A stretch of DNA of 41,986 bases from an uncultured bacterium (GCA_965539945.1 CBETWD010000003.1:1-41986); one strand, 5' to 3'; counted from the first letter of the stretch, positions 8,716-41,960 are shown. A program made the numbers and translations. Notes: generated by a model from the letters alone, not told the origin.

Positions 8716-8749
8716 TTTAATCCACAGATTTCGCAGATTACACCGATTA
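8716..8749. repeat. 9-bp tandem repeat (CACAGATTT/CGCAGATTA/CACCGATTA) overlapping the rnhA stop
   Basis: TCCACAGATTTCGCAGATTACACCGATTA; the final TTA (8747-8749) is the rnhA stop codon on the minus strand. Confidence 0.75.
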
Positions 8750-9226
8750 CTCTAATCTGCCTGTTCTGTCCTCTTCCAGACCTCCTGCCTGGCCTTCGGA
8801 AATGGCTTCCCTGGCCAGTTGATCAGCCAGTTCATTTTCCTCGTGTCCGGCATGACCCTTGGTCCATTCCCAGTGAACCTTGTGAAATTGACACAAAGAG
8901 TCAAGTGCCTGCCATAGATCCTTGTTTTTAACAGGCTTTTTGGCGGCAGTCTGCCACCCTCTGCGCTTCCATGCAGTTATCCACTCGGTTATACCCTGTT
9001 TTACGTATTTGGAGTCGGTGGTGATAATCACATCGCAGGCCCTTTTAAGGGCCTCAAGGGCCCGTATTGCTGCCAAGAGTTCCATCCGGTTGTTTGTGGT
9101 GTTTTTTGACCAGCCCTTGATGCACTTTCTTTGTTTGTCATACTGCAACATTGCCCCCCACCCACCGGGCCCAGGGTTTCCGGAGCAGGCACCATCAGTG
9201 AATATATGGACTATAATTGGCATCAT
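8747..9226 (-). CDS. rnhA: Ribonuclease HI
   Basis: [51 protein letters not shown]. Confidence 0.97.
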
Positions 9227-9375
9227 TCATTCACCAGTTTACACTTTCTTCAAAAAAACGCGCACTATCGAATTGAATGCCGAGGTCGAAACTGGAAATT
9301 CGAAATTCGAAATTAGGTAACGCATTTAAATCTTTATATTTTTCCCAATTTCAAATTTCAAATTTCAAATTTCGC
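9214..9375. repeat. Intergenic element with inverted GAAATTC/AATTTCA heptamer arms; partial second copy at 38111-38183
   Basis: GTCGAAACTGGAAATTCGAAATTCGAAATTAGGTAACGCAT is identical at both loci, and TTCATTCACC(A/G)GTTTACACTTT is also shared. Confidence 0.85.
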
Positions 9376-9383
9376 TATTAAAA

Positions 9384-10094: not shown

Positions 10095-10104
10095 TATTTA
10101 TGGG

Positions 10105-10193
10105 CGTTCACGGTTCTGGGTTCAAAGGTTCTGGGTTCAAAGGTTCTGGGTTAGCTGATAGACTGATAGGAAAGCTGATAGACTGATAGGAAA
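10105..10193. repeat. Tandem GGTTCTG/GGTTCAAA array followed by a 20-bp direct repeat
   Basis: GGTTCTGGGTTCAAA repeated, then AGCTGATAGACTGATAGGAA twice. Confidence 0.85.
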
Positions 10194-10363: not shown

Positions 10364-10379
10364 AGCAAATACCGTGCCA
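10364..10379 (-). promoter_or_regulatory. Sigma-54 (-24/-12) promoter facing menG
   Basis: Minus strand reads TGGCACGGTATTTGCT, an exact fit to TGGCACG-N4-TTGCW. Confidence 0.75.
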
Positions 10380-12014: not shown

Positions 12015-12938
12015 TCACAATTTCCTCAATGACTGATGACCAATGTCGTCGGCAGGCAACATTTTCAACTCCGATATCCTGGGAAAACCACCGCGATCAT
12101 GTAGCAGCCTGAAGAAATGGAGCAGACCCTGCTGCTTTTTTTCTGAAAGATCGAGTTCTATGCCCTTAAGATATCCCAGACAGTCTGATGAGGTCATTGG
12201 TATCTTGTGGGCAACCAGATTACTTATACGTTCGAGTTCAATCAGGCCCTTGTGATAGCATTCGCTGAGGCGCTTATGGAGGAGACGAATTTTTTCCGGC
12301 CATGCAACCCAGATTTCTTCTCTGATGGCCCATACGGCAAATACAAAAGGCAGACCTGTATGGTCCAACCATATTTTGGCTAGATCCGACCGGAATAGAT
12401 TATCAGTGTTAGATCGCAGCCTCAGGGCCTCGTCCCCTATGGCGAGGTAGGCCTGGGCCACGGGATTTACCGACAGTTCCTTAAAATTTCCTGTCCTGAA
12501 TATGGGTCTCATTCCTAAAAAGTCTTCAAGTATTATATGCAAAAGGTTGACGGATGTTGCGGATTGAGGAGTTAATAGCACAAGTTTTTCATTGAGTTCT
12601 TCAATTGGGACCTTGCTGAGAAGGATCACGCTCCCCACAGGGCCGGTAGCACTTATACTCAGGTTTGGCAATATGTAGTATCTGTCTGCATTGAGGCCGT
12701 ATGCATAGGAGGAAACAATACCCGCATCCAGTTTCCCCTGGGCCAAATGGCTGTTCAAAAAGGTGGGCGGGCCCTCTTCCACCACCCATCCATTGAGAGG
12801 ACCCATTTCCTGCCAGGGGACATAGATCGGCGAGGTATTAATAAAGTTCACAATGCCCAGTTTGGCATACTGAATATTGCCGGCCTCCAACCCCTTTTTC
12901 ATTCCGGATTTTACCTCTTCAATCACCAAATCACCCAA
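12015..12938 (-). CDS. mqnA: Chorismate dehydratase MqnA (exact start uncertain)
   Basis: LGIVNFINTSPI, GPPTFLN, ISATGPVGSV, SATSVNL, LAIGDEAL, TGLPFVFAVW; lies in the mqn cluster. Confidence 0.9.
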   Translation of the reverse strand: MGDLVIEEVKSGMKKGLEAGNIQYAKLGIVNFINTSPIYVPWQEMGPLNGWVVEEGPPTFLNSHLAQGKLDAGIVSSYAYGLNADRYYILPNLSISATGPVGSVILLSKVPIEELNEKLVLLTPQSATSVNLLHIILEDFLGMRPIFRTGNFKELSVNPVAQAYLAIGDEALRLRSNTDNLFRSDLAKIWLDHTGLPFVFAVWAIREEIWVAWPEKIRLLHKRLSECYHKGLIELERISNLVAHKIPMTSSDCLGYLKGIELDLSEKKQQGLLHFFRLLHDRGGFPRISELKMLPADDIGHQSLRKL

Positions 12939-12957
12939 TCACCAAATCACCCAATCC
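12920..12957. repeat. 8-bp tandem repeat (AATCACCA/AATCACCC) at the deaminase-mqnA overlap
   Basis: CAATCACCAAATCACCCAATCACCAAATCACCCAATC; same unit at 37129-37167 and 38905-38950. Confidence 0.9.
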
Positions 12958-14217
12958 CCTGCATCCTTCATGGACAAGGAATTCCAGGATATCTTTATTG
13001 CCAATGGGACCCGACTCTACTGCCAAAAATGTTGCGGCTTTGCCCCTGGCCAGACTCCCCAATTCTTCAGAGATACCAAGGGCCCTTGCTCCACCATAAG
13101 TGCCTGCCCTGAAAATGGCCTCTGGAGGAAGACCGGGGGCCAGCTTTGAAAGGCTTGCCATTTCGGCGAAGATGGAAAGCCGGTCGTTGCTTGCAAGGCT
13201 ATCTGTACCAAGGGCCAATGGTATGCCTGAAGCATGAAGCTCTTCCACAGGAGCCACACCCACTCCAAGGAATACATTGCTCCTGGGACACAGACAAACG
13301 CCAGCCCCTGTTTTTGCCAGGATTGAGATGTCATCCCGGTCCACCTGGACACAGTGAACACAGACAGTATGCCTATCAAGTAGCCCCAAGGTTTCAAGAT
13401 ACCTCACAGGAGACGCTTTGGGGAGATCATAATTCAAGGGCCAGTGTCCTTTTTCTTTTAAGAGTTCTATTAGGGGACCCTGCCTACCTTGCAGGAACTC
13501 TATCTCCTCTTCTGATTCAGCCACGTGAATGGGAAACGGCATGCCATGGCTCTGATCCCATGCCTTAATGGCTTTAAGGACCGTCGGCGCCACAGAATAC
13601 GGGGCATGGGCGGAAAAGGCATAGCGAAAAGATGGCCCCAAGATGTCCATGGGTTCAGGAACTTTTTCATTTACAAAAAGGGGGCTGAGAGGGATTTCTT
13701 CCTCCGCTCCATTCGGTATCGGGCATACCAGTTCTTGAAAGAAGACGCCCCTGAAAGGCCATGTGCCATCTTTTTTGGAAGAAAAAAGCGGGATAACATC
13801 CAGATTTCCCACGTCTCCAACGGCAATTATCCCGTTTTTTTGCATCTCTTTTATCGCCTGACATATGGCCGGTTCCCATTCTTCAGGCCTGATCAGGTCG
13901 CGGGCCTCAATAAGCGCTCTTACCCAGTCAACAAAGGAACCGCTTGGAGAAAGACGCCACCTGAGGGGAGAGAGTTCAAGGTGAGAGTGGGTATTTATCA
14001 GGGCGGGACAAAGTATGGAGTCTCCATAGTCTTTTATCTCTGCCTGATAGCTTGCGCGGAGTTCCGATGCCGGTCCTACCCCTACTATTTTTCCTTCAAA
14101 GGTCGCTATTGCCCCATTTTCTATTGGAGGCCTTGAGACAGGAACCACCCATCTGGCTATGTGAAGATGGAAAGAACTTGGTGATTTGGTGTAGGGGTTC
14201 AGAGGTTCAGGGTTCAC
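12931..14217 (-). CDS. Amidohydrolase, probable aminodeoxyfutalosine deaminase
   Basis: INTHSHLEL, HAPYS, IHVAES, VHCV, LCPRSN, LGTDSLAS; lies between mqnC and mqnA. Both termini are repeat-derived. Confidence 0.8.
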   Translation of the reverse strand: MNPEPLNPYTKSPSSFHLHIARWVVPVSRPPIENGAIATFEGKIVGVGPASELRASYQAEIKDYGDSILCPALINTHSHLELSPLRWRLSPSGSFVDWVRALIEARDLIRPEEWEPAICQAIKEMQKNGIIAVGDVGNLDVIPLFSSKKDGTWPFRGVFFQELVCPIPNGAEEEIPLSPLFVNEKVPEPMDILGPSFRYAFSAHAPYSVAPTVLKAIKAWDQSHGMPFPIHVAESEEEIEFLQGRQGPLIELLKEKGHWPLNYDLPKASPVRYLETLGLLDRHTVCVHCVQVDRDDISILAKTGAGVCLCPRSNVFLGVGVAPVEELHASGIPLALGTDSLASNDRLSIFAEMASLSKLAPGLPPEAIFRAGTYGGARALGISEELGSLARGKAATFLAVESGPIGNKDILEFLVHEGCRGLGDLVIG

Positions 14218-14527
14218 CGTTCAGGGTTACCTTTCTGTAAGGGTTCAGAGGTTCAGAGGTTCAGGGTTCACAGGTTACATTGAAAGATGAACGTCGAACA
14301 TCCAACATCGAACGTCCAACGTCGAATGAAAAACAAATATCCAATACCGAACACACAACAGCTATTTCTATTTCTTCATCTTTTTCTTGACCCTTGCCCC
14401 CTGACCCTTGCCCCTCTGAACCCATGTTCTGTTTCTTCATCTTTTCCCATTCAAAATTCGATGTTGGACGTTCGATGTTCGATGTTCATCTTTTTTCTTG
14501 AACCCTGAACCCATTAACCCATTAACC
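14195..14527. repeat. Nested repeat element A, copy 1 (outer GGTTCAG/CTGAACC arms, inner AACATCG/CGATGTT arms)
   Basis: Core GAATGAAAAACAAATATCCAATACCGAACACACAACAGCTATTTCTATTTCTTCATCTTTT recurs inverted at about 18.76-18.82 kb. Confidence 0.92.
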
Positions 14528-15586
14528 GGATTCTCCAACTAAACTATAGTCCATCAGGCGCTGACGCGGTTCAAAGCCTGCATCGGTAACAATTCTACGT
14601 ATTTCTGCTTCCGAGAGTCGATGACTCACCCCGGCTGCTGCGACCACATTTTCCTCAATCATTGTGCTGCCAAAGTCATTTGCCCCAAAAAATAAGGCAA
14701 TCTGGGCCACTTTGGGACCTTGTGTGACCCATGAGGCCTGAAGATTCGGGAAGTTGTCAAGGACAATCCTGGCGATGGAAAGCAGTCTCAAATATTCCTG
14801 TCCGGTAGATGGCCTGACGTCAAGAGCGGTATTTTTGGGTTGAAAGGGCCAGGCAATAAAGGCTGTGAATCCGTTGGTGCGGTCTTGAAGGTCTCTAAGG
14901 CGTAAAAGGTGTTCAATTCTTTCCTCCGGTCGCTCCACGTGGCCGTACATCATAGTGGCAGTGGTCTTAAGCCCTAATTCGTGGGCAGTCTCCATTACAT
15001 TCAGCCACTCATCTGTTGTGGCCTTCCGTGGGGAGATCTGCTTTCTTACTCTGTCTGTCAGGATTTCCGCTCCACCGCCCGGGATGGAATCGAGTCCGGC
15101 CTTGATAAGCCTGACCAGGACCTCTTTTATAGACAGACTGGAAATATTGGCAAAGTGAACGATCTCAGGAGGAGAAAAGGCATGGCAATGGATTGCAAAA
15201 CCGTCTTTTATAAAAGAGAGCATTTCCTCGTAGAAAGTAAGGGGGAGATCAGGATGGAGCCCGCCTTGCAGCAGGATCTGTGTACCCCCAAGTGATTTTG
15301 TCTCCTCTAACTTCTCAGCCAGTTCTTTCCAGGAGAGTACATAGCCTGAAAGGTCACCCGGTGCGCAGTAATAAGCGCAGAACTTGCAACCGGAGATGCA
15401 TATATTGGTATAGTTAATGTTCCGGTCTATGACATATGTGACAATGGGTTTTGGATGCAGCCTTTGCCTTACTTCGTCAGCAAGTTGGCCCAGAATATTC
15501 AGGTCTGCCTCTTGATAAAGCAAGAGGGCATCATCTCCTGAAAGGCGCCTGCCGGCCCGGACCTTTGATATTATCGGATCAATCAT
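14522..15586 (-). CDS. mqnC: Cyclic dehypoxanthine futalosine synthase (radical SAM)
   Basis: DRNINYTNICISGCKFC, LLQGGLHP, QASWVTQG, GANDFGSTMIEENVV. Confidence 0.95.
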   Translation of the reverse strand: MIDPIISKVRAGRRLSGDDALLLYQEADLNILGQLADEVRQRLHPKPIVTYVIDRNINYTNICISGCKFCAYYCAPGDLSGYVLSWKELAEKLEETKSLGGTQILLQGGLHPDLPLTFYEEMLSFIKDGFAIHCHAFSPPEIVHFANISSLSIKEVLVRLIKAGLDSIPGGGAEILTDRVRKQISPRKATTDEWLNVMETAHELGLKTTATMMYGHVERPEERIEHLLRLRDLQDRTNGFTAFIAWPFQPKNTALDVRPSTGQEYLRLLSIARIVLDNFPNLQASWVTQGPKVAQIALFFGANDFGSTMIEENVVAAAGVSHRLSEAEIRRIVTDAGFEPRQRLMDYSLVGESG

Positions 15587-15600: not shown

Positions 15601-16686
15601 TCAGACCGGCTCGTAGAGAGTGTCGCGCTCTACAGGCTTTCTCCCTGCCTGTCGGATAAGGTGCTCGATCTCACCACGGGTCATGGCCTGGGAGGTATCC
15701 GCCCCTGCCATGTGCGTAATCTTTTCTTCCAGCACAGTCCCGTCCAGATCATCCGCACCAAAGGACAGGGCGATCTGCGCAACTTTTGGCCCAAGCATCA
15801 CCCAATAGGCCTTGATATGTGAAAAGTTATCCAGCAGGAGTCGTGATACTGCAATACTCTTAAGATCATCCACCCCGCCTGTGGATGACAGGTATTCCAG
15901 TTTTGTATTCTTGGGGTGAAAAGCAAGAGGTATGTAACACAGAAATCCGCCTGTCTCGTCCTGGGCCTCTCTCAGGGCCAGCAGATGCTCTATCCGTTCA
16001 GATATTGTCTCAATATGGCCGTAGAGCATGGTGGCATTGGTCCTGAGACCTGCTCTATGGGCGGTTTTAGCAACTTCCAGCCAGTCCTTCCCAGGGAGCT
16101 TACCAGGGCAGAGCTTTTCCCGTATTCTGGTGCTGAAGACCTCTGCTCCGCCTCCGGGAATGGACCCCAGGCCGGCCTGCATAAGACCTTCCAATGTCTC
16201 GGCAATTGACTGACCCGAAATGGCTGCCAGATGGGCTATCTCTACACAGGTAAAGGCCTGGATATGGATCTCAGGTCTTTCAGCCTTTATGGCCTTCAGC
16301 ATGTCAATATAATACCCATAAGGGAGATCCGGGTGCAGGCCGCCGACAATGTGTACCTCTGTGACGGGTTCGGCATGCCTTTCCCTTATCTTGGAGACTA
16401 TCTCTTCTATGGACATTTCGTAGGCCTTCGGGTGGGTCTTTTCCTTTCCGAAGGCACAGAATTTACACAGATTTATACAGATATTAGAATAGTTTATGTG
16501 CTGATTATAGATATAATAGGCTTGGTTTCCGTTAAGCCTTTCTCTTACCATATTAGCCAGATAACCAAGGGCCGGCAGATGAGTAGTGGAGAAGAGCAGT
16601 TCTCCATCTTCAGCGCTTAAGCGAGTGTCGGACAGGATCTTTTCGTATATTTCAAAGAGTCCTGCTTCTTTAAGGGCTTTTTCCAT
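15601..16686 (-). CDS. mqnE: Aminofutalosine synthase (radical SAM)
   Basis: NYSNICINLCKFC, EVHIVGGLHP, HIKAYWVMLG, FGADDLDGTVLEEKITHMAG. Confidence 0.95.
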   Translation of the reverse strand: MEKALKEAGLFEIYEKILSDTRLSAEDGELLFSTTHLPALGYLANMVRERLNGNQAYYIYNQHINYSNICINLCKFCAFGKEKTHPKAYEMSIEEIVSKIRERHAEPVTEVHIVGGLHPDLPYGYYIDMLKAIKAERPEIHIQAFTCVEIAHLAAISGQSIAETLEGLMQAGLGSIPGGGAEVFSTRIREKLCPGKLPGKDWLEVAKTAHRAGLRTNATMLYGHIETISERIEHLLALREAQDETGGFLCYIPLAFHPKNTKLEYLSSTGGVDDLKSIAVSRLLLDNFSHIKAYWVMLGPKVAQIALSFGADDLDGTVLEEKITHMAGADTSQAMTRGEIEHLIRQAGRKPVERDTLYEPV

Positions 16687-16756
16687 AGTTTGCAGTTACC
16701 TTTACCCGGTTTAATCAAGAGGGAAGAAAGGTGGTGTTAGAAGGTTATTTCCTTTT

Positions 16757-16822
16757 TTAATTCAAAATTCAAAATTAAGAACTCAAAATTGTGTCTGAAC
16801 GGCCTTTTCGTTCAGGCACTAA
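16757..16822. repeat. AATTCAA heptamer arm plus 11-bp-stem hairpin abutting the slyD stop; second copy at 38259-38325
   Basis: CAAAATTGTGTCTGAACGGCCTTTTCGTTCAG(G/A)CACTAAT at both loci. Confidence 0.88.
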
Positions 16823-17793: not shown

Positions 17794-17832
17794 TCAATCA
17801 CGAAAACACGAAGGTACGAAAACACGAAAAAA
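17794..17832. repeat. CACGAAAA-type 8/9-bp tandem repeat
   Basis: ATCACGAAAACACGAAGGTACGAAAACACGAAAA; the inverse TTTCGTGTTTTCGTGATTG occurs at about 34729-34747. Confidence 0.7.
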
Positions 17833-17908: not shown

Positions 17909-18613
17909 ATGCACAATGTGCGTTTATTTTACCTTTTGTTAGTTATAGTTATGGTATTTACTTTTGCTTCGAAGTCCCTGGCAGGAGGTCTTTCAGATCG
18001 TGGAAAAGATCTTGTGTCCCTGTTACAGAAAAAATACGAAACCACCACTGATATTACCTCTAACTTCGAGCAGGAGACGTTTGCTACCGGTTCTTCAGAG
18101 GGTCTCAAGGCAAAAGGAAAGGTCTATTTCAATCGTCCACACCAGATGCGCTGGGAATACAGTCAACCGGAACCGCAGCTTATTGTCACCAGCGGGCAAG
18201 AGGTATATGTGTATGAGGAGGAAGCCAATCAGGTAATGGTGCTTCCCAGGGATCAATTACTTTCAACTGAGATAAGCAAGGCCTTTTTTTTTGGAAAAGG
18301 TGACCTCAAGCGTTTTTTTATTGTAGAGCATCCTGTAGAAGGCCAACCGGATGCCAGGTGGATGCTGAAGCTTACCCCAAGGAATCCGGTACCGCAGGTA
18401 TGCACCATATGGATTGTCGTAGATTCTGATACCCATCTGGTAAAGGAGATGTGGCTGGAAGACCAGTTAGGTGGCAGGACACATCTTGTATTTAGCAATG
18501 TCAAGGTCAATAAAGGCCTTTCAGACGATCTTTTCCGGTTTGTTCCACCTCCAGGTGTGGAAATCTACCGTACAGATGATTCTGAGGTTCTAGGTTCAGA
18601 GGTTCAGGGTTGA
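17909..18613 (+). CDS. lolA: Outer-membrane lipoprotein carrier LolA
   Basis: Signal peptide, FEQ, GKVYFNRPHQMRWEY, FRFVPPPGV; GGAGG RBS before ATG 17909. The C-terminal SEVLGSEVQG* is repeat-derived. Confidence 0.9.
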   Translation: MHNVRLFYLLLVIVMVFTFASKSLAGGLSDRGKDLVSLLQKKYETTTDITSNFEQETFATGSSEGLKAKGKVYFNRPHQMRWEYSQPEPQLIVTSGQEVYVYEEEANQVMVLPRDQLLSTEISKAFFFGKGDLKRFFIVEHPVEGQPDARWMLKLTPRNPVPQVCTIWIVVDSDTHLVKEMWLEDQLGGRTHLVFSNVKVNKGLSDDLFRFVPPPGVEIYRTDDSEVLGSEVQG

Positions 18614-18903
18614 GGGTTCAAGAAAAAAATGAACATCGAACATCGAACGTCCAACATCGAATGTTGAATGGGGAAAAATGAAGAAACAGAACATGGGTTC
18701 AAAGGGGCAAGGGGCAAGAAAAAAATGAACATCGAACGTCCAACATTGAACATCGAATGGGAAAAGATGAAGAAATAGAAATAGCTGTTGTGTGTTCGGT
18801 ATTGGATATTTGTTTTTCATTCGATGTTGGACGTTCGATGTTCGATGTTGGACGTTCATCTTTCAGTACAACCTGTGAACGGTGAACCCTGAACCTTTGA
18901 ACG
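18580..18903. repeat. Nested repeat element A, copy 2 (inverted relative to copy 1, with an extra AACATCG arm)
   Basis: Near-identical to 14195-14527 on the opposite strand; both translate to the spurious MKNKYPIPNTQQLFLFLHLF. Confidence 0.92.
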
Positions 18904-18923
18904 TCTACAATCAGGAGAACAAA

Positions 18924-25908: not shown

Positions 25909-27552
25909 GTGAAAAGCTCAATATATTTCATAAGACACGGAGAGACGCATGCAAACGAGCAAAACTACCTTGCCGGAGGTATTGATGTCCCGCTCTCTGA
26001 TCTTGGGAAGAGGCAAGCAAAAGAAGCAGGGCAGATGATATTGAAAAAGGGACTTAAGTTTGACGAAGTTCACACTTCGGATCTTACTCGAACCAAAATA
26101 ACGGCCTTAATTGCATTAAGAGAATCAGGACAGGAAAACATCCCGTTTATCGAATCTCCGGAAGTAAGAGAAAGAGATTTTGGTATATTTGCAAAAATGA
26201 ATAAAAATTTACTCAAGAAATCCCTCGGTTATAGGGGCTATGACAGAAAGCTCCATTCTCCTATTGAATGTCCAGACTCTGGGGAGACCTTTAAAGATAT
26301 GTATAGGAGAGTTCACAAATACTATTACAATGTATTACTCCCCAAAATTAAATCAGGGAAATCGATTCTGGTTGTGTGCCATAAGTATATTATTGAGATG
26401 TTTGCCTTGATTTTAGCTGGGCTTAAGATGGATAATTACTTTGATTTTCGTCTTCCAAATGCCAAGCCAATGAGCGAAAAGGATTTGGTAGGTTATATAA
26501 AGTCTGAATCAAAGCTCTTGAAAGAGATTTCCGATCGTCTTACTTATCATTCTTCCTGGATAATCATTGCAGCCGCCCTTTTTGGCATTTTAGCAAAGAC
26601 TGCCATTGGCCTTCCATTTAATAGCTTTGCTTTTTTGATAATAACAAGCATACTTCTTGGTATTAGTACTTTCTTTATTACACTTGGCCTAAACACAAAT
26701 TCTATAATAGATTCTTTTAATTTAAAAAAGCGATTCTTGTTTCTTTGGTGTTTAAAGTTTGGCTTAGCCGGAAGTTTGTTTCTATTAATGAAAGATAATG
26801 TAACATCAAATTTGGCAATGCTTTTTCTTATGCCACCGGCATTTACAGCGCCTATACTCTCTCTGCTTTGGGGCGGGAGTCTGTACTTGGCTATTGAAAA
26901 AACGTTTTTACTCTCTCTCTTGTCTCCTTTGGTTATAGCCGGGCTCTTGTGTTTTGGTGACATTTCATTCTATATTATATTTATGCCCTTTCTCGCTGTT
27001 ATGATTATTTCCATGATTGTGCCTACATGTATAGCTCAAGCTATCCGGATAAGAAAGCCGGTTGAGAGTAGTAAATTTGCCGAACACTGGAAATGGCTCG
27101 GCATACTTTCAATCATCCTGGTATCTTTTATAAGCACATACCGTTTTACTCCGGCCAACATATTTGATCTAATATTAGGGAACTTAGAAAATTCAAGTAT
27201 TTTTCTTACGCAAGGGATAACAGTGTGTTCAATGCTTTTATTAATTAAATTTTTTGCCTACTCTGCCAGTAAATTCAGTAAAAAGGATGCCCCACAGACT
27301 ACCGACATTTATATAACTCATTCTACACCCAATATCTTCTTATGGATCAACTGCATTTCTTTCCAGGCTGATATAGTTTATATTGGATTTTGGGCTTCTA
27401 TTGCATTTTTTGTGGGAATATTGCTGGACGAAATCTATTTTGTTTATAAATTTAATGGAATCATGTCTTCCAAAAAGAGCAGGATCACCTATATGAAACC
27501 TGCCCGAGTGAACTCTATCACCGGCCTGGAATCGTGCCCCGTACCTGCATGA
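25909..27552 (+). CDS. Histidine phosphatase (dPGM-like) fused to a multi-TM, BASS/SBF-like transporter domain
   Basis: RHGET, SDLTRTKIT, ERDFG, SGETF, VVCH; then about 9-10 hydrophobic segments including MPPAFTAPILSLLWGGS. Confidence 0.75.
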   Translation: MKSSIYFIRHGETHANEQNYLAGGIDVPLSDLGKRQAKEAGQMILKKGLKFDEVHTSDLTRTKITALIALRESGQENIPFIESPEVRERDFGIFAKMNKNLLKKSLGYRGYDRKLHSPIECPDSGETFKDMYRRVHKYYYNVLLPKIKSGKSILVVCHKYIIEMFALILAGLKMDNYFDFRLPNAKPMSEKDLVGYIKSESKLLKEISDRLTYHSSWIIIAAALFGILAKTAIGLPFNSFAFLIITSILLGISTFFITLGLNTNSIIDSFNLKKRFLFLWCLKFGLAGSLFLLMKDNVTSNLAMLFLMPPAFTAPILSLLWGGSLYLAIEKTFLLSLLSPLVIAGLLCFGDISFYIIFMPFLAVMIISMIVPTCIAQAIRIRKPVESSKFAEHWKWLGILSIILVSFISTYRFTPANIFDLILGNLENSSIFLTQGITVCSMLLLIKFFAYSASKFSKKDAPQTTDIYITHSTPNIFLWINCISFQADIVYIGFWASIAFFVGILLDEIYFVYKFNGIMSSKKSRITYMKPARVNSITGLESCPVPA

Positions 27553-27567: not shown

Positions 27568-27597
27568 CTTTGAACCCTGAACCCTGAACCTGGAACC
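27568..27597. repeat. CTGAACC heptamer array between convergent genes
   Basis: CTTTGAACCCTGAACCCTGAACCTGGAACC. Confidence 0.85.
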
Positions 27598-30422: not shown

Positions 30423-30488
30423 ACCGTTCAGGGGTTCAAAGGTTCAAGGGTTAAGAGGTTCGGGGTTTACCAAAAATCTGAACCGTTG
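30423..30488. repeat. GGTTCA(A/G) tandem array
   Basis: CGTTCAGGGGTTCAAAGGTTCAAGGGTTAAGAGGTTCGGGGTT...CTGAACCG. Confidence 0.75.
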
Positions 30489-30766
30489 ATTTGTGGGTTC
30501 TGAATGGAGAAGGCATGAGAAAAAAACGAGGAGAGCATATGTCATACCTCCCTAAATTTGAGTTCCTTATCCATTTTTATTAATTAACCCGAAAAGGAAC
30601 TTGTAAGGTAACTTATTTCAACATCGTCTTTGAAAAGAAAACTGTTCTGTGAAAAGACATGGGTTCAGTCCAAAATCGACTGTGACTGATCGAAAAACAA
30701 GAGCAAATTACGACCAAACGCTGCTGTAAAACCGTTGATTTAAAAAAAACTTTGAGGGAGGAAAAA

Positions 30767-32426: not shown

Positions 32427-32490
32427 ATGAACATCGAACATCGAACGTCCAACATCGAATGTTGAATGAAAAAAGATGAGGAAACAGGAT
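32427..32490. repeat. Single AACATCG arm of element A directly upstream of the radical SAM gene
   Basis: ATGAACATCGAACATCGAACGTCCAACATCGAATGTTGAATG is identical to about 18629-18670. Confidence 0.9.
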
Positions 32491-32492
32491 TT

Positions 32493-34082
32493 ATGAAATG
32501 GACAGAAGAGGCAAAAAAGGCCTTTGAGGCGGTACCGCCTTTTGTGAGGCCTATGGCCAAAAAAGGAGTAGAGGCCTATGCCCGGTCCATGGGGCAAAAA
32601 ATCATCACCCCTGAGCTCCTTAAAGACGCCAAAAGAAATCTCATGGGAAGACATGGGATGAAATCAACGGATTCCCAAGTCAACAAGGAAAAACCGGACA
32701 GGAAGGCTTCGGTCCTTACGACTCAACATCCAAACAAATTTTTTGCCAGAGAAGGGGTGGACCCACTGAAGTACGCCTTTGATCGCAAGATCGCTGTTCA
32801 TGCAGGGGCCGGAGGACAAACGCTTTCTGCTGAAGATGCCTTGCCTACCTGGCAGGCACTTTGTATTAAGCCTGACAGTTCGTCCCGAAGGGCAGTCTAT
32901 ATCCATGTCCCCTTCTGCCAAAGCCGGTGTCTCTATTGCGGCTTCTTCATGCATACCTTGCGCCGGGGTGACAGCACCCGTTACACTGATGCCCTCCTCA
33001 AGGAGATAGAACAGACCTCGGGACTTCCGGCCGTGGCCGGCCACCCCATACATGCAGTCTATCTGGGAGGCGGGACACCTACTGCATTGGATGCAGGGGA
33101 TCTCAAGCGGCTGATCGAGACTGTCTGCCGCCTGTTCCCCCTGGCCGATGACTGCGAAATCACAGTGGAAGGCAGGGTGGCTGATTTTGGGCAGGACAAG
33201 ATGCAGGCCTGCGTGGCCGGAGGTGCCAACCGTTTTTCCATAGGTGTCCAGAGCTTTAATACCAAAGTCCGGCAGGACGTTGGACGTATAGCGGACAGGG
33301 CCGAGGTCCTGAAAATGCTTACCACCTTGACTGACCTGGATAATGGGGCCGCAATTATTGACCTCATCTACGGACTTCCAGGCCAGACCATGGCTGTCTG
33401 GGAAGATGACTTGAGGACCCTGATTGAAGAGACAAAGCTGGATGGCGCTGATCTCTATCAGTTGAGTGTCTTTAAGGGCAGCCTTTTGAGCCGGGCTGTA
33501 GATCAGGGTAAGCTCCAGTCCCCTGCGGACATCCCTACCCAGGCAGAGATGTTTTTAAAGGGCAGGGAGATGATGACCGCGGCTTGTTTCAGACGCCTCT
33601 CCATGTCCCATTGGGGCCGCACTCCCAAGGAACGCAACCGTTACAACACCTTTATCCGCTATGGGGCCACCTGCATCCCACTGGGCTGTGGTGCAGGAGG
33701 GCGCCTTCACGGCCACTATTTCTTCCAGGAGGGGAATCTGAAGACCTACTATAGGCGTGTCAACGCAGGGGAAAAACCAGTGGCCACGGCCATTCTCCTG
33801 CCTGCGCACTCCCCTCTTTTTAGAAACCTTGTTGGGCAGATGGAAAATGGCAGAGTGAGTCTCACTGCCCTTGGAGAAAAGCACGGTTTTGACTTAGAGG
33901 CAGTCTTTTCCCCGCTCCTTGAGCAATGGGAGCATGCGGGCCTGATACGGCGTCCGGGGGAGGGGTGGATTGAGCTTACAGTGGCTGGGGAGTTCTGGAA
34001 TGTCAACCTGGCCCAGGCCCTTATTGATTACTTCCAGCACTATCATCAGGAAGATGCCCGGCCAGGTTCCATGGCACTTTAA
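32493..34082 (+). CDS. HutW/ChuW-like class C radical SAM enzyme with N-terminal PCP_red domain
   Basis: WTEEAKKAFEAVPPFVRPMAKKGVE (PCP_red); YIHVPFCQSRCLYC, YLGGGTPT, EITVEGR, HWGRTPKERNRYN, GCGAGG, AGEFWNVNLAQ. Confidence 0.85.
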   Translation: MKWTEEAKKAFEAVPPFVRPMAKKGVEAYARSMGQKIITPELLKDAKRNLMGRHGMKSTDSQVNKEKPDRKASVLTTQHPNKFFAREGVDPLKYAFDRKIAVHAGAGGQTLSAEDALPTWQALCIKPDSSSRRAVYIHVPFCQSRCLYCGFFMHTLRRGDSTRYTDALLKEIEQTSGLPAVAGHPIHAVYLGGGTPTALDAGDLKRLIETVCRLFPLADDCEITVEGRVADFGQDKMQACVAGGANRFSIGVQSFNTKVRQDVGRIADRAEVLKMLTTLTDLDNGAAIIDLIYGLPGQTMAVWEDDLRTLIEETKLDGADLYQLSVFKGSLLSRAVDQGKLQSPADIPTQAEMFLKGREMMTAACFRRLSMSHWGRTPKERNRYNTFIRYGATCIPLGCGAGGRLHGHYFFQEGNLKTYYRRVNAGEKPVATAILLPAHSPLFRNLVGQMENGRVSLTALGEKHGFDLEAVFSPLLEQWEHAGLIRRPGEGWIELTVAGEFWNVNLAQALIDYFQHYHQEDARPGSMAL

Positions 34083-36373: not shown

Positions 36374-37177
36374 TCATTGCCCTGCAACGGCTGAACGAAC
36401 TGCATCCAGATCCTCCGGTGTGTCCACTTCCAGCGGGGCCTCTTCAACCCTCACAACTCCGATCGAGTAGCCATTTTCAAGGGCCCTGAGCTGTTCCAGC
36501 CGTTCTATCTGTTCGAGTTTCCCCGGAGGGAGAGTAACAAAGGTCTGAAGAAAATTCTGCCTATAGGCGTATAGGCCCAGGTGCCTGAGATAGTCATGGC
36601 CTGATCCTTTGGGCAGGTCTCCCACTGTATCAGCGTCTCTGTAGTATGGAATCATGGCCCTGGAGAAGTAGAGGGCCTTCCGGTTATTGTCCACTACCAC
36701 CTTAACCCGGTTGGGATTCAGGGCCTCCCGGGCCTCAAGAGGACATGCAGGAGTTGTCATGGCAAAATCAGGAACCTCAAGGAGCATTTTTATAATTTCA
36801 ACTACTGGTCGCGAATCAAGCAGGGGCTGGTCTCCCTGGATATTAACCACGACATCATTGTCTGAAAGTTCGAGAAGCCTAGCCACCTCTGCAATCCGGT
36901 CCGTCCCGGAAGGATGGCCGGGGTCTGTCATAAAAACCCTTCCACCGGCTGTTTCCACGCACTCTGCAATCCTCGAATCATCAGTCGCCACTACTACCTG
37001 ATCAATGCCGGGGACCTCCAGTGCCCTCTGGTACACATGGAGAATCATCGGGCGGCCCTGAATCTTTGCAAGGGGTTTCCCCGGAAATCTGGATGAGCCA
37101 AAACGTGCCGGGATTATGGCAAACACTTTGATTTGGTGATTTGGTGATTGGGTGATTTGGTGATTGGAAAGATTCAT
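36374..37177 (-). CDS. kdsB: 3-deoxy-manno-octulosonate cytidylyltransferase
   Basis: IIPARFGSSRFPGKPL, VATDD, SGTDR, NIQGDQP, ALYFSR, LEQLRALENG. The N-terminal NHQITQSPNHQI is repeat-derived. Confidence 0.97.
   Translation of the reverse strand: MNLSNHQITQSPNHQIKVFAIIPARFGSSRFPGKPLAKIQGRPMILHVYQRALEVPGIDQVVVATDDSRIAECVETAGGRVFMTDPGHPSGTDRIAEVARLLELSDNDVVVNIQGDQPLLDSRPVVEIIKMLLEVPDFAMTTPACPLEAREALNPNRVKVVVDNNRKALYFSRAMIPYYRDADTVGDLPKGSGHDYLRHLGLYAYRQNFLQTFVTLPPGKLEQIERLEQLRALENGYSIGVVRVEEAPLEVDTPEDLDAVRSAVAGQ
37129..37167. repeat. TGGTGATT octamer array inside the kdsB 5' end
   Basis: TGATTTGGTGATTTGGTGATTGGGTGATTTGGTGATTGG. Confidence 0.9.
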
Positions 37178-37218
37178 GTGATTTACCTAGGGTCAAAAGT
37201 GCCTAAAGTGAGCTAAAG

Positions 37219-38121
37219 TTATGGAATGGTGTCTCCCGGCAACCCCCTGGACTGGCTGTCTTTCTGTTTGATCTCCAGGGCAAGCGGATATACCTGGCTC
37301 TTGGTCATACCGGTAAGGCGGACCAAAAGATCCACACTATCCCTGATTGACAAGCTCTTTTCTGAAATCAGGTGCTGAAGCGCCTTTCCTACTGCCTCCG
37401 GATCCCGGCAGGATTTCCTGTGTCTATCCTCATCCGCCCCTTCTATCACTAAGGTAATCTCACCTTTCACACGTCCCTTTGAAAGCTGCTCTATAATACC
37501 TGATACTAAGCCGGATATTACAGTCTCATACATCTTTGTGAGCTCCCTGGCCATTACCATTCTCCTATCCCCTAAAACACCCAGGATATCTTCCAGGGCA
37601 TCAAGCAGGCGATGGGGTGCCTCGAAAATTACGATTGTGTGAGGGATTTCTGCCAGTTGCTCAAGGGTCTTGCGTCTTTCAGCCCGCTTGTTTGGAAGAA
37701 AGCCAGCGAAAAAAAATGAGTCTGCCGGCATGGCTGCCACGCTCAGGGCCGCAACAATAGCAGATGCCCCTGGTACCGGAACTACGCTGAAACCAGCCTC
37801 CCTGACGAGTTTTACCAGGCCTGCACCCGGGTCTGAGAGTGCAGGGGTGCCGGCATCTGATACCAGAGCCACGTCCTTCCCTTCTGCAAGCAAGGTAATG
37901 ACCTTTTTGGCACTGGTCCTTTCATTGTGCTTGTGGCAGCTCAAGAGGCCGGCCTTGATGCCCATATGAGTGAGTAGCTTTCTGGTACCCCTTGTATCTT
38001 CCGCCGCAACAAGAGAAACCTCACCAAGGACCTCTTTTGCCCTTATACTAATGTCTTTAAGATTTCCAATGGGAGTGCCTACTACATAGAGGACCCCTTT
38101 ATTTGGTGATTTAATCGGCAT
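37219..38121 (-). CDS. rsmI: 16S rRNA C1402 2'-O-methyltransferase
   Basis: LYVVGTPIGNL, AEDTR, VSDAGTPALSDPG, FEAPHR, ARELTKMYE, KGEI. Confidence 0.97.
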   Translation of the reverse strand: MPIKSPNKGVLYVVGTPIGNLKDISIRAKEVLGEVSLVAAEDTRGTRKLLTHMGIKAGLLSCHKHNERTSAKKVITLLAEGKDVALVSDAGTPALSDPGAGLVKLVREAGFSVVPVPGASAIVAALSVAAMPADSFFFAGFLPNKRAERRKTLEQLAEIPHTIVIFEAPHRLLDALEDILGVLGDRRMVMARELTKMYETVISGLVSGIIEQLSKGRVKGEITLVIEGADEDRHRKSCRDPEAVGKALQHLISEKSLSIRDSVDLLVRLTGMTKSQVYPLALEIKQKDSQSRGLPGDTIP

Positions 38122-38325
38122 TCTTCATTCACCGGTTTACACTTTTCCCGAAGTCGAAACTGGAAATTCGAAATTCGAAATTAGGTAACGCATCCCTTTA
38201 TAGACAATGTTGAATGCTAAATGCTGAATTGTGGAATAAGATTTAAAAGACATATACCTTAATTCAAAATTTAGAATTTAGAATTCAAAATTGTGTCTGA
38301 ACGGCCTTTTCGTTCAGACACTAAT
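38111..38325. repeat. Composite intergenic repeat: GAAATTC arm, then TGAAT(G/T)(C/T)/AATTCAA arms and hairpin
   Basis: The left part matches 9214-9325 and the right part matches 16757-16822. Confidence 0.88.
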
Positions 38326-38920
38326 CACTTGATTGTCTGTATACATGAAAAATACGCTGCAGGGCGGTTATGTGCGTAAAAATTGCGATAATTACCAGAA
38401 CCGGATAAATCCATCCGAAGACAAGGCCCACAACAAGGATGAATATACGTTCAAACCTGGTAAGCACTCCCACCTTACAGCTAAAACCCAGGGCCTCTGC
38501 CCTTGCCCTGGTGTAGCTGACAAGGAGAGACCCTGTCATTGCGGAAAGTACAAGGGCCGCTTCGACCAAACCGCCCTGCCTGTGCAGCATCAGATAGGCC
38601 ATCAGCCCCAGAAAGAGAAAGAATTCAGCATACCTGTCCACTGTTGAGTCAAGAAAGGCGCCAAAGGGGCTGACCCGTCCCTGCTCCCTGGCGAGCAGTC
38701 CATCAACAGCATCCAGGGGTCCGAATACGACAAGCAGCCAACCGGCAGCCGCCGGATGACCCATGCCAAGTACCATGCCGCTTGCTCCATAGGCAATAAG
38801 CCCGATGATGCTGACCATGTTGGGAGATAGACCGAGCTTTCCCAAAAAACGGGCCACTAAAAGCAGATAGGGCCTGAACCGGTCACGACACCAATCGCTG
38901 AAAGACCAATCAATCACCAA
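38321..38920 (-). CDS. CDP-alcohol phosphatidyltransferase (phosphatidylinositol-phosphate synthase-like)
   Basis: SPNMVS, DAVDGLLAR...GAFLDSTVDRYAE, SLLVSYTRARAEALG, RFERI. Confidence 0.88.
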   Translation of the reverse strand: MVIDWSFSDWCRDRFRPYLLLVARFLGKLGLSPNMVSIIGLIAYGASGMVLGMGHPAAAGWLLVVFGPLDAVDGLLAREQGRVSPFGAFLDSTVDRYAEFFLFLGLMAYLMLHRQGGLVEAALVLSAMTGSLLVSYTRARAEALGFSCKVGVLTRFERIFILVVGLVFGWIYPVLVIIAIFTHITALQRIFHVYRQSSD

Positions 38921-38950
38921 ATCACCAAATCACTCAATCACCAAATCACT
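38905..38950. repeat. AATCACCA octamer array spanning the ileS stop and the next start
   Basis: ACCAATCAATCACCAAATCACCAAATCACTCAATCACCAAATCACT. Confidence 0.9.
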
Positions 38951-41758
38951 CAGCACTCTTGAACACCGGCCGCATACATCAGGCCATGAAGGGTCTTTGC
39001 CCACATCTTCACTCCAGGTCCAACACCTGGCGCATTTTTCACCCGCTGCCTGGATAACCTTGACAGCAAGCCCTTCTATCTCATCGCTCTGCCATACAGT
39101 ACTGTCCCCTGAGTCAAGTTCCCCACTCAAGTCAAGCTGGGAAACAATGGTAATAGTCCTTAGTAGTTCCCTGTGTTCTTCCATGAAGTCTGCCATATTT
39201 TCAGGAGGCCTTATCAGGACCTTTGCATCCAGGGCAAGGCCTATCCGTTTTTCTTTCCTGGCAAGTTCCAGTGCCTTTGTAACTTCTCCCCGGATTTTCC
39301 ATAGGAGTTCCCATTCAGCATTGAACGATTTATCAATGGAAATGGACGGGGGATCAGGCAACTCAGCCAGAAAAATACTCTCAGTCCCAGCGCTTGGCAG
39401 GTGGCTCCAGGCCTCCTCAGCAGTAAATGAAAGTATCGGGGCCATAAGAAGCACTATATCATGGACAATACGGTAAATGGCTGTCTGGGCAGAACGGCGG
39501 ATACGGCCCTCCGGGTGCTCACAGTAGAGTCTGTCTTTTAAGATATCCAGATAGAGTGCGCTCAGGTCAACTATGCAGAACTGTTGTATTTGGCGGAACA
39601 CACCGTGGAAATTAAACTCCTTATAGGCATGTTTGACGCTTGTAGTTATTTCTCCAAGCCTCACCAGGGCCCAGCGATCAAGGGCTTCCAGTCGGTCAAA
39701 ATCCAAAGAGTGCTTATCCGGGTCAAAATCAGACAGGTTGCTGAGAAGATAACGGATAGTATTGCGGATCTTCCTGTATGCCTCAGTCAGGCGCTGAAGT
39801 ATCTCGTTTGAGATCTTTATATCATCCTGGTAGTCCTCTGCTGAGACCCAGAGCCTCAGCACCTCTGCTCCGTATTTCTTGATGACATCAGCCGGCGGGA
39901 TAACATTACCCACTGACTTGGACATCTTTTTCCCCTTTCCGTCCACAACAAAACCATGGGTAAGCACTGCCTCGTAGGGTGCCTTGTGTCTGGTCGCAAC
40001 GCTGGTAAGAAGTGAACTCTGGAACCATCCCCTGTGCTGATCACTTCCTTCCAGATAAAGGGCAGCCGGAGAGGAAAGCCCTTCCCGGGTCTCCAGGACC
40101 GCTGCATGGCTCACCCCTGAATCAAACCAGACATCCAGTATATCGATCTCTTTGCGAACTCTTGTGCCTCCACACTTTGGACAAGCAGTTCCAGGAGGAA
40201 GGAATTCCTCTGCCTCCCTTGCAAACCACGCATCAGAGCCTTCTTTTTCAAAGATTTCTACCAGGCGATCCGCTATTGCCCGGTCCATTACAGGTTCTTC
40301 GCAATCCTCACAGATAAGGACCGTAAGGGGAATACCCCAAGCCCTCTGTCTGGAAATGCACCAATCAGGCCTTGTCTCTATCATTCCGTAAATACGCTCT
40401 TTTCCCCAGTCCGGAATCCATCTGACGGTCTCAATGGCGCGAAGGGCCTCTTCACGCAACGCCCCTGCCTCCATGGAGATGAACCACTGCGCGGTTGCTC
40501 GAAAAATTACCGGCTTTTTGCAACGCCAGCAGTGGGGATAGCTGTGCTCAATGGTCTCATGAGCCACAAGGCTGCCCTTATCTCGCAGCATTTCAACAAT
40601 CTTGTCATTTGCATTAAAAATGTTTTCTCCCTCGAATTCCTTTACCTCTGATGTAAACCTGCCGTAGTCGTCCACAGGGGAATAGATATCAAGGCCGTAT
40701 CTGATGCCGCTTTCATAGTCATCCGCTCCGTGGCCCGGAGCTGTGTGAACACAGCCTGTGCCTGTATCAAGCGTAACATAAGGGGCGATAATGATGAGAC
40801 TATCCCTTTCAAGGAAGGGGTGTTTTACATGCATTCCTTCAATATCTCCGCCCCTGAATGTACCGAGGACTTTGGCATCTTTCTGCTCAAGACCAGCATC
40901 AATCAGGGTAGAAAGCAACCTTCCCTCTGCCAGTATCCAGACTTCTTTTTCCCCACCAACCTGGACCTCAACAGCCACATAGTCAAAGTCAGGGTGCAGC
41001 GCCACCGCCAGGTTGGCAGGCAGAGTCCAGGGAGTAGTGGTCCAGATAAGCGCAAAGGCAGGACCGGCCAACATTCCAAAACGATCCTCAAGCCACTGTT
41101 TGAGGACATCTCCGGCTGCAAATCTTACTGTAATTGAAGGAGACTTGTGTGGGGCGTACTCTACCTCAGCCTCTGCCAGTGCAGTCACACAAGTAGGACA
41201 CCAATAGACTGGTTTTTTACTCTTAATGACATGACCATCCATAAATATGTGACAGAACTCTCTACAGATGGCGGCTTCGTAGTCGTATGTCATTGTGAGA
41301 TAAGGGTTATCCCAGTCTCCCAATATTCCAAGCCTTGAGAATTCTTCTTTCTGTATGCGTACAAATTTTTCCGCATAGCGCCGGCACGCCTTACGCACGG
41401 CCAACTTGCTCATCTTGGACCTCTTGGACCCCAAGTCTTTCTCAACGTTGTGCTCAATGGGCAGTCCGTGGCAGTCCCACCCCGGCACATACGGCGTATC
41501 AAACCCCATCATATGGTGAGATTTTACAATTATGTCCTTCAGGACCTTATTGATCGCATGCCCCAGGTGTATGTGGCCATTTGCATAGGGAGGGCCGTCA
41601 TGAAGTATGAAAGGGGGCCGTCCCTGTCCTTGTTCTCTCAGGTGCCCATAAAGGTCCATGGCCTTCCAGCGCTTGAGCATTTCAGGCTCCCGCTGAGCGA
41701 GATTTGCCTTCATTGGAAAGCGTGTCTTAGGAAGGCTTAGTGTCTTTTTGTATTCCAT
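38930..41758 (-). CDS. ileS: Isoleucine--tRNA ligase (type 1)
   Basis: LHDGPPYANG, HLGH, GWDCHGLP, WTTTPWT, KMSKS, C-terminal CARCW...CGRC. Confidence 0.98.
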   Translation of the reverse strand: MEYKKTLSLPKTRFPMKANLAQREPEMLKRWKAMDLYGHLREQGQGRPPFILHDGPPYANGHIHLGHAINKVLKDIIVKSHHMMGFDTPYVPGWDCHGLPIEHNVEKDLGSKRSKMSKLAVRKACRRYAEKFVRIQKEEFSRLGILGDWDNPYLTMTYDYEAAICREFCHIFMDGHVIKSKKPVYWCPTCVTALAEAEVEYAPHKSPSITVRFAAGDVLKQWLEDRFGMLAGPAFALIWTTTPWTLPANLAVALHPDFDYVAVEVQVGGEKEVWILAEGRLLSTLIDAGLEQKDAKVLGTFRGGDIEGMHVKHPFLERDSLIIIAPYVTLDTGTGCVHTAPGHGADDYESGIRYGLDIYSPVDDYGRFTSEVKEFEGENIFNANDKIVEMLRDKGSLVAHETIEHSYPHCWRCKKPVIFRATAQWFISMEAGALREEALRAIETVRWIPDWGKERIYGMIETRPDWCISRQRAWGIPLTVLICEDCEEPVMDRAIADRLVEIFEKEGSDAWFAREAEEFLPPGTACPKCGGTRVRKEIDILDVWFDSGVSHAAVLETREGLSSPAALYLEGSDQHRGWFQSSLLTSVATRHKAPYEAVLTHGFVVDGKGKKMSKSVGNVIPPADVIKKYGAEVLRLWVSAEDYQDDIKISNEILQRLTEAYRKIRNTIRYLLSNLSDFDPDKHSLDFDRLEALDRWALVRLGEITTSVKHAYKEFNFHGVFRQIQQFCIVDLSALYLDILKDRLYCEHPEGRIRRSAQTAIYRIVHDIVLLMAPILSFTAEEAWSHLPSAGTESIFLAELPDPPSISIDKSFNAEWELLWKIRGEVTKALELARKEKRIGLALDAKVLIRPPENMADFMEEHRELLRTITIVSQLDLSGELDSGDSTVWQSDEIEGLAVKVIQAAGEKCARCWTWSEDVGKDPSWPDVCGRCSRVLSDLVIE

Positions 41759-41789
41759 TGTTTAGTCCTCTGGATTATTTTGTATCTAT

Positions 41790-41960
41790 GGATTGATGAT
41801 TGTTGATTGTTGATTGCTCTATTGTTCTATTCTCATGCCTTCTCCCCTGCCCTTGACCCTTGACCCTTGACCCTTGACCTTTTGCCCCACTACGAACTAC
41901 GAACTATACACACTACGAACTATAATTTCCTTTGCTCTCTGCCCCCTGCCCCCTGCCCTA
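41790..41960. repeat. Stack of several different heptamer arrays upstream of ileS
   Basis: GATTGTT repeats, CCCTTGA x4, CTACGAA repeats and GCCCCCT repeats in succession. Confidence 0.9.

Follow-up and report, generated by a model that had tools for sequence, protein, structure and literature searches.

Tandem arrays of seven-nucleotide units have been described near gene ends in Beggiatoaceae, cyanobacteria and Bacteroidetes (PMC4679880) and, with convergent pairs, in Xanthomonas and Nostoc (PMC4692102). In the accessible text of both reports, the arrays are treated as slippage products or regulatory sites, and no flanked gene family, termini or duplications are mentioned. Intervening sequences (IVSs) of 23S rRNA that bear an open reading frame (ORF) and terminal stems are known from Coxiella and Leptospira; they span about 430-450 nt, with long-stem inverted termini and a single PF05635/TIGR02436 ORF (S23p) in the loop, their origin is stated to be unclear, and they have already been suspected of being selfish or mobile, with an ORF that might serve mobility (PMC4990558). 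PF05635 is related to Avd of diversity-generating retroelements (PMC10053308). The abundance of heptamer repeats, the nature of the S23p-bearing IVSs and the role of PF05635/TIGR02436 proteins outside these retroelements are decades-old puzzles. Here, we analysed a 41,986-nucleotide stretch of DNA from an uncultured bacterium (GCA_965539945.1, CBETWD010000003.1:1-41986; the whole stretch is hereafter called the window), which carries arrays of 7-9-bp units at many gene ends and whose lineage ties the three puzzles together. We consider it likely that these arrays are mostly the arms of mixed small mobile elements that have spread into this lineage's intergenic spacers, which are very short. 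Several unrelated element families are involved, not one system.

The window is contig C3 of a metagenome-assembled genome (MAG; 2.6 Mb, 317 contigs, 92% complete), here labelled G000. The host is a SEEP-SRB2-like member of the Thermodesulfobacteriota, and its IleS is 92-96% identical to that of Deltaproteobacteria or Thermodesulfobacteriota MAGs, several of them labelled SeepSRB2. Arrays were detected with Tandem Repeats Finder (TRF), with 30 Markov-3 shuffles as control for the window, ORFs were called with a crude, custom-made caller, and junctions were compared with those of 17 congeners, relatives that are non-independent of one another. Contigs of other strains came from four coded cold-seep RNA runs, two of them probably DNA; these were assembled only, and the contigs break at elements. 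Since the source is a MAG, repeats and insertion sequences are under-assembled.

One family has well-defined ends. In G000, the tip TAA[CG]CGTT[CT]AC was counted 165 times on one strand and 150 times on the other (about 5 expected), and 77 left/right tip pairs lie 100-300 bp apart. Inspected copies end in perfect GTAACCGTTCAC...GTGAACGGTTAC termini and are flanked by perfect 8-bp target-site duplications; among the 63 outermost pairs, the duplication matched at 8/8 positions in 17, at 7/8 in 3 and at 6/8 in 5, compared to no more than 5/8 in the shifted control. The duplicated 8-mers share no evident motif by eye, and none of 67 copies lies within a called ORF. The GGTTCAG arrays turned out to be the inner portion of the terminal repeats of this family. 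Small non-coding dispersed copies, terminal inverted repeats, a duplication of fixed length and empty orthologous sites are the features of MITEs (miniature inverted-repeat transposable elements), of which Correia/NEMIS of Neisseria and Nezha of cyanobacteria are bacterial examples. The elements likewise resemble bacterial MITEs in being intergenic, nested and strain-polymorphic. They differ from them in three respects: no parent insertion sequence with the same termini, and no autonomous transposase-encoding partner, was found in this 92%-complete MAG, the arms are iterated heptamers, and the sole gene found within the termini encodes a four-helix-bundle protein of 120-130 aa. A single long tip pair below 2 kb (1.9 kb, contig C29) was considered as an autonomous element and rejected, as it encloses an ordinary ATPase-type gene of about 440 aa, Rho-like by eye. 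A 107-108-bp palindrome, GTAAGCGTTCACAGGGCACC...GGTGCCCTGTGAACGCTTAC, is present in dozens of copies across G000 contigs (e.g. C1:13006-13115), often nested in a 157-bp form with the GTAACCGTTCAC tip.

The preliminary description of the window had interpreted its arrays as footprints of a transposase-less insertion system and proposed that empty sites be sought in close relatives. Such sites were found among the congeners. The junction at 14192-14523 is filled in G008, G015, G001 and G016, and shrunk in eight others: G007, G005 and G017 retain 1-4 bp, G011, G002, G014 and G010 about 30 bp, and G003 45 bp. In the G016 orthologue (G016:C3, L095), the GAACATC-armed element holds a nested insertion of about 190 bp with terminal repeats of its own (AGAGATCACAAGAAATG...). 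The junction at 38122-38320 is empty in G001, G007, G004, G014 and G008, where the neighbouring genes overlap as GTGATTAA; four genomes carry four copies of TTGGTGAT there, G002 and G011 carry a T module alone, and G000 and G003 carry both modules. We call T an ordered unit of stop codon, hairpin, AATTTTG array, Shine-Dalgarno (SD) sequence and 8-codon mini-ORF, present in 52 copies in G000. Contigs of other strains show positions 16702-16819 swapped for 38 other letters, 18587 joined to 18911 with 7 letters between (18588-18910 missing) and, in three runs, one extra TTGGTGAT unit at 14177.

The same picture emerged on a larger scale from about 255 kb of G000 and G001 aligned at 91.5% identity, in which 72 of 75 collinear junctions differ by at least 15 bp; 70 of these 72 are intergenic. 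Clean presence/absence could be assigned in 37 cases (25 filled in G000, 12 in G001), with flanks overlapping by at least 5 nt in 17. Arrays are present in 16 of these insertions and absent from 21. Hence, the proposed insertion footprints are borne out by filled and empty sites, although more than one system is at work and many clean insertions lack an array. Larger indels between the two genomes (0.7-2.3 kb), inspected for an autonomous element, had no transposase among their contents, which were ordinary genes or a vapBC-like pair. A vapBC-like pair (AbrB-like plus PIN, identified by eye) lies in an insertion of about 1 kb relative to G001 (G000:C19:13771-14797), with a GGTTCAG-type array at one border and MITE units at the opposite one.

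The preliminary description had further linked similar arms to four-helix-bundle (TIGR02436-type) genes of other bacteria and suggested listing arm-enclosed genes elsewhere in the genome. We found four full-length TIGR02436 genes ('23S rRNA intervening-sequence protein') and one weak match in G000, the proteins on C107, C25 and C98 scoring 89-115 bits (cut-off 24) and that on C157 scoring 101 bits in the genome search. Inverted arrays flank all four full-length genes, each with a different unit, so that this association holds in this genome. In the full-length form of the GTAACCGTTCAC...GTGAACGGTTAC family, TIGR02436 is the sole gene, and the C98 copy has the MITE tips. A remnant of the gene start is kept in 11 MITEs of G000, one of which lies in the window at 30539; the absence of such a gene from the window, as stated earlier, therefore applies to full-length genes. 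G003, G016 and G010 lack the C98 element at the orthologous site, which in G011 holds a different 55-bp array element, and copies of the gene-bearing element occupy other positions in G004, G002 and G008. The C25 protein gives a weak match to Avd (E = 1.7e-6). At G000:C100:4535-4883, inverted ATTTGGTG arrays enclose a 103-aa ORF that has no NCBIfam match and whose N-terminus is predicted to be membrane-like; it is the sole small cargo candidate seen other than TIGR02436.

The association extends beyond this genome. Of 201 genomes sampled from the phylum, 117 carry TIGR02436, and at the best 30 loci (the best-scoring match per genome from 30 genomes, several mutually related and thus a non-random sample) inverted same-unit arrays were found at 20, and an array on at least one side at 28, compared to 0 of 26 shifted controls. 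Other phyla were covered by plasmid loci. Searching plasmids by tblastn returned 25 records, of which at least 22 are cyanobacterial, judging from genus names, and inverted same-unit arrays flank 12 of 14 loci (12 from Cyanobacteria, one each from Azospirillum and Gemmatirosa), with a 13th recognised by eye, versus 1 of 28 controls. Among pairs of proteins at least 59.8% identical, the unit agreed within one mismatch in 9 of 13, where we calculate a chance of about 2% per pair; the 13 pairs are non-independent because they fall into roughly four clades. The plasmid gene lies between cas6 and cas4 at L217 (Pseudanabaena) and L227 (Anabaena sp. 90), between cmr2 and cmr3 at L228 (Picosynechococcus) and, in another case, between two ribonucleotide reductase subunits. 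A CRISPR survey lists '23S rRNA IVP' among array-linked proteins (PMC10910872), and we speculate that heptamer arms may be misread as CRISPR arrays by array finders. The arrays described here are not CRISPR arrays: their 7-9-bp units abut directly, as opposed to CRISPR repeats of about 24-48 bp with unique spacers.

Compared with the 23S rRNA IVSs, the gene-bearing elements share the size of about 430-450 nt, the TIGR02436 ORF inside and complementary termini that, judged from their sequence, would form a long stem. Unlike IVSs, they lie between protein-coding genes in all copies studied (rRNA genes of the MAG were not searched), have tandem 7-9-bp arms, left many gene-less derivatives, among which 8-bp duplications are seen, and leave empty sites in relatives. 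A published link between heptamer arrays and TIGR02436 or IVS proteins was not found in the literature searched, from which subscription journals and supplements mostly fell outside, so that an earlier description is possible.

The window contains 49 TRF rows, 36 of them with a period of 7-9, compared to a mean of 2.8 (maximum 7) in the shuffles, and all nine repeat units named in the preliminary description are present. A genome-wide repeat scan, also proposed there, yielded 2075 rows in G000 (period 7, 747; period 8, 349; period 9, 219); intergenic period-7 rows number 603, versus 8 in the shuffle. After merging of arrays with periods 6-10 (n = 1441), 889 were wholly intergenic, 132 partly so and 420 within crude ORF calls, and arrays make up 6.4% of intergenic bases. 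Only 55 of 716 period-7 arrays lie at least 60 nt inside a confident ORF (versus 92 of 217 period-9 arrays). The preliminary description had noted none inside conserved domains, to which a weak period-10 array at 16455-16482 (2.7 copies of CACAGATTTA) is an exception, as it lies in the MqnE domain within the coding region. We counted 421 canonical units in G000, the most frequent being GGTTCAG, GAACATT, TGGTGATT, GAACATC and GAATTTT. A same-unit partner within 2.5 kb is inverted for 217 of 1265 period 7-9 arrays (at most 200 bp apart in 168) and direct for 65. Arm polarity is fixed to a large extent: whichever strand is read, the 5' arm is the G-rich one and the 3' arm the C-rich one, with G>C versus C>G in the 5' arm of 131 versus 24 G000 pairs, 18 versus 4 gene-bearing loci (L142-L171) and 11 versus 0 plasmid loci (L217-L230). 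Numerous 5' arm units are SD-like (AGGGA, GGAG, GGTGA). A scan of the window against Rfam 15 at gathering score gave no matches. As with the cyanobacterial STRR (short tandemly repeated repetitive) heptamers, TAACTGA and GGGAATC, the arrays are tandem, intergenic, near starts and stops, often convergent and patchy in distribution (PMC4679880, PMC4692102). The array bloom is lineage-specific, as seen from the following densities.

G000, source genome: 287 period-7 rows per Mb and 121 MITE tips per Mb.
G001, same genus: 198 period-7 rows per Mb and 88 MITE tips per Mb.
G013, same genus: 90 period-7 rows per Mb and 5 MITE tips per Mb.
G022, other family: 10 period-7 rows per Mb and 0 MITE tips per Mb.

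Alternatively, the arrays could be ordinary simple-sequence repeats that arose in place by slippage in DNA free to vary, with no mobile element involved. Heptamers are indeed the commonest class of long simple-sequence repeats in many bacteria and have been ascribed to slippage (Mrazek et al. 2007, via PMC4679880), the head-to-tail short units vary in number between strains, as at 14177, and TTGGTGAT is present once or four times at two junctions. An origin in place would leave neither termini, duplications nor dispersed identical flanks. We found perfect termini with 8-bp target duplications, near-identical composites dispersed across many contigs, orthologous sites that either hold or lack an entire element of 100-460 bp, inverted partners far in excess of direct ones and a gene enclosed by the arms. 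Slippage as the sole explanation is already contradicted by these observations, and we regard it as highly improbable.

In the window, the arrays and elements are distributed as follows, the strand being given where assigned.

8724-8750: three tandem 9-mers CRCNGATTW, the last of which holds the rnhA stop; found by direct reading, below TRF score 30.
9219-9380: 'S' element with tip GGCATCATTCATTCACCAGTTTACACTTT, GAAATTC array at 9286-9314 and inverted AATTTCA array at 9347-9373.
9221-9226, minus strand: rnhA ATG(s) supplied by the S tip, which reads ...GGTGAATGAATGATGCC| on this strand and continues into a 158-codon ORF.
10104-10193: MITE-tip-like GGGCGTTCAC, GGTTCTG/GGTTCAAA array (10112-10152) and a 20-bp repeat in two copies (10153-10193), upstream of the start (10094) of a ubiE/menG-type methyltransferase gene.
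12920-12956: AATCACCA 8-mer array with the deaminase stop and a TTG (12938) at which the longest ORF of the MqnA-family gene starts.
14170-14530: nested composite of TTGGTGAT units, outer inverted GGTTCAG arms (14195-14276/14500-14527), inner inverted GAACATC arms (14289-14326/14457-14487) and a CCCTTGA array (14386-14419).
16702-16821, minus strand: T module 3' of slyD, with TAG, hairpin GTGCCTGAACG-loop-CGTTCAGACAC (about 16786-16818), AATTTTG array (16759-16790) and then AAAAAAGGAAATA.
17799-17830: CACGAAAA 8-mer array between the starts of a DUF1178 gene and lolA.
18580-18910: second nested composite, 81% identical to 14243-14527 in opposite orientation, with inverted arms at 18580-18622/about 18880-18900 and 18631-18757/18820-18857.
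23524-23555/23613-23642: inverted AGTGCCTAA 9-mer arms between the smc start (23491) and the recJ stop (23681).
27571-27597: TGAACCC array between convergent gene ends at 27552 and 27605.
30425-30580, plus strand: cut-down GGTTCAG-armed MITE with tip TAACCGTTCA and the first eight TIGR02436 codons (MSYLPKFE) from 30539.
32429-32468, plus strand: solo GAACATC arm, with the HutW-like ATG (32466) within the inner GAATGAAAAA motif.
37129-37165: TGATTTGG 8-mer array inside the longest-ORF 5' end of kdsB.
37196-37219: AAAGTGMCT array containing the rsmI stop.
38122-38323, minus strand: stacked insertion between the phosphatidyltransferase gene and rsmI, combining a T module, with its TAG at 38321-38323, hairpin and AATTTTG array, with a second hairpin module (GAATGCT/ATTCAAC) and half an S element; the tip of this half provides an ATG CCG fused in frame to rsmI (start 38121).
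38912-38949: AATCACCA 8-mer array with the ileS stop, adjoining the phosphatidyltransferase start (38920).
41791-41958: four arrays stacked upstream of ileS (start 41758), with units GATTGTT, CCCTTGA, ACTACGA and CTGCCCC.

The two composites (14195-14530 and 18580-18910) are nests of inverted arms with an RNA fold z-score of -5.7.

Eight genes of the window had been reported to end inside or next to arrays; their names are upheld, and direct reading confirmed every one of these stops. They lie inside arrays for rnhA (8747-8749, TAA on the minus strand), the deaminase gene (12931-12933), mqnC (14522-14524, in a GGTTAAT unit), lolA (18611-18613, in a GGTTCAG arm), rsmI (37219-37221) and ileS (38930-38932), whereas the slyD TAG (16819-16821) abuts a hairpin and the phosphatidyltransferase TAG overlaps one. 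The six starts that had likewise been placed in or beside arrays fared less uniformly. For rnhA and rsmI, the ATG is located in an element tip. Those of the MqnA-family gene and kdsB are merely the starts of the longest ORF (the Pfam match begins at residue 26 and the family models at residue 17, respectively), the smc start is 33 nt from the closest array, and the HutW-like ATG lies 7 nt past one. Genome-wide, element tips supply stop codons often and start codons rarely. The TAA of the GTAA tip is the stop of 7 of 53 stop-side neighbours, and a stop lies within 10 nt in 21 of 53; 24 sides of T hairpins abut an ORF of at least 80 codons, among them 15 cases of a TAG overlapping the hairpin's first base. 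The S tip ends in ...GGTGAATGAAGGATGCC|, and a long ORF is entered from 2 of its 18 copies in G000, both in this window. Gene ends are thereby rewritten in C-terminal tails, stop codons and occasional starts, and assemblies break at the elements; MqnC, for example, ends in ..SGN, ..SGERL, ..SGEP or ..SG before the stop, depending on the state of the junction.

Such an arrangement may suggest adapted 'junction cassettes', which would be directed to stop/start junctions and serve to re-create the terminator, stop, SD and start there, so that targeting and function rather than survivorship would explain their location. The T module follows a fixed order: in 27 copies (e.g. 16702-16760, minus strand), AAAAAGGAAATAACCTTAATATG follows the hairpin and AATTTTG array, and is itself mostly followed by a conserved 8-codon mini-ORF (MLIV[HP]DLN and stop) with a good SD. 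The insertion at 38122-38320 split genes that overlap in five congeners and gave one of them a TAG and the other an in-frame SD plus ATG, in two module combinations. Of 287 tandem spacers, 64 have their array block no more than 5 nt away from the stop side, about threefold the 22.5 expected under uniform placement, and 18 have it equally close to the start side, where distances are unreliable because gene calls are crude. Against these points, 16 of 18 S tips feed no long ORF, at least 28 of 52 T hairpins have no adjoining long ORF, a simple terminator scan made no call for the T hairpin, and the duplicated 8-mers lack a consensus by eye. Moreover, co-directional spacers have a median length of 16-21 bp without arrays and of 177-190 bp with arrays (469 of 1863 spacers in G000 bear arrays). 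With array-free spacers this short, surviving insertions must sit at junctions, and elements would pile up there because only insertions sparing both neighbouring genes would survive. We thus consider targeted cassettes unlikely; survival in very short spacers explains placement better than targeting, for which the earlier proposal had argued and which is not needed. The companion idea that disrupted signals are rebuilt is right in so far as tips do provide stops and occasionally starts, yet the pattern resembles survivorship, and we read these signals as co-option under selection, not design.

If the arrays are mostly arms of mobile elements, their history could be pictured as follows. The founding form of at least some families would have been an element of about 450 bp, consisting of an outer tip, a tandem-heptamer arm, the TIGR02436/PF05635 gene and an inverted arm. 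Internal deletion would have given rise to gene-less MITE-like copies, each insertion creating an 8-bp target-site duplication. Copies would then nest in one another, with slippage shifting the copy number of their arms, and would survive only where the insertion leaves both neighbouring genes working. Tips with a chance TAA, TAG or SD plus ATG would finally be co-opted as a new stop or, occasionally, a new start. An enzyme acting in trans or involving the cargo protein would presumably move the elements, whereas a selective filter would determine where they persist.

Several observations weigh against this interpretation. Searches of G000 with seven DDE or Y1 transposase families and RVT_1 returned no transposase matching the element termini; IS256, ISL3, DDE_Tnp_1 and rve gave no match and IS66 stayed below threshold. 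The sole IS1595 copy in G000 is decayed, and intact IS1595 copies in three congeners have unrelated terminal repeats. The absence of a transposase is not established by these searches because the MAG is 92% complete in 317 contigs. The target duplication of the C98 element is ambiguous (8 bp with one mismatch, or none), and an automated duplication test on 34 gene-bearing loci performed no better than the control because the outer ends were too poorly defined. No gene-bearing parent is linked to the T module, to the S and GAACATC elements or to the solo fourfold TTGGTGAT arrays. Slippage alone may have produced some of the arrays; one strain differs by exactly one 8-mer unit. The crude start calls and non-random phylum loci mentioned above limit the argument further.

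Regarding known mobilising enzymes, the elements resemble REP/REPIN sequences (repetitive extragenic palindromes and their hairpin-forming pairs) with their RAYT (REP-associated tyrosine transposase) in that both are short, palindromic and intergenic and multiply inside one genome (PMC3116915). Two Y1_Tnp matches are present in G000, on C225 and C141. An 8-bp target duplication is unexpected under the REP/REPIN-RAYT mechanism. G000 also contains two reverse-transcriptase genes (C37:4559-5128 and C75:1411-1758, with open frames of 417 and 1015 aa).

Arrays might alternatively be cis-regulatory sites, either targets of an RNA- or DNA-binding regulator or structure-forming motifs, kept for gene control with mobility being incidental. 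TAACTGA repeats of Beggiatoaceae, located just 5' of start codons, have been proposed as sites of a translational regulator (PMC4679880), and Xanthomonas GGGAATC arrays, 70-75 of them in convergent pairs, have been studied as G-quadruplex regulators (PMC4692102). Units are also retained where the proteins they flank have diverged to about 60% identity. The 421 canonical units in a single genome and the presence or absence of elements among close strains at housekeeping junctions speak against such a role, which we hold to be quite improbable.

Returning to arrays as arms of mobile elements, a more far-reaching version is that TIGR02436/PF05635 proteins recognise their own heptamer arms and drive mobility, gene and arms together forming a new minimal autonomous mobile element. 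We put this forward tentatively and consider it doubtful so far; it is hinted at by a sole gene within the termini, an architecture that holds in four phyla, a unit specific to each element and kept down to about 60% protein identity, and the fixed polarity of the arms. If true, one type of element would be the origin of ORF-bearing 23S rRNA IVSs, of the heptamer repeats of cyanobacteria, Beggiatoaceae, xanthomonads and the lineage described here, and of a large share of the MITEs of those groups. Mobility and the role of the small protein are directly testable in this lineage, since close genomes with empty and filled sites, exact termini and duplications are at hand.

Apart from the repeats, the HutW/ChuW-type radical SAM protein (32466-34082) has about 60 additional N-terminal residues, which resemble the C-terminus of protochlorophyllide reductase subunit B (E ~1e-9).

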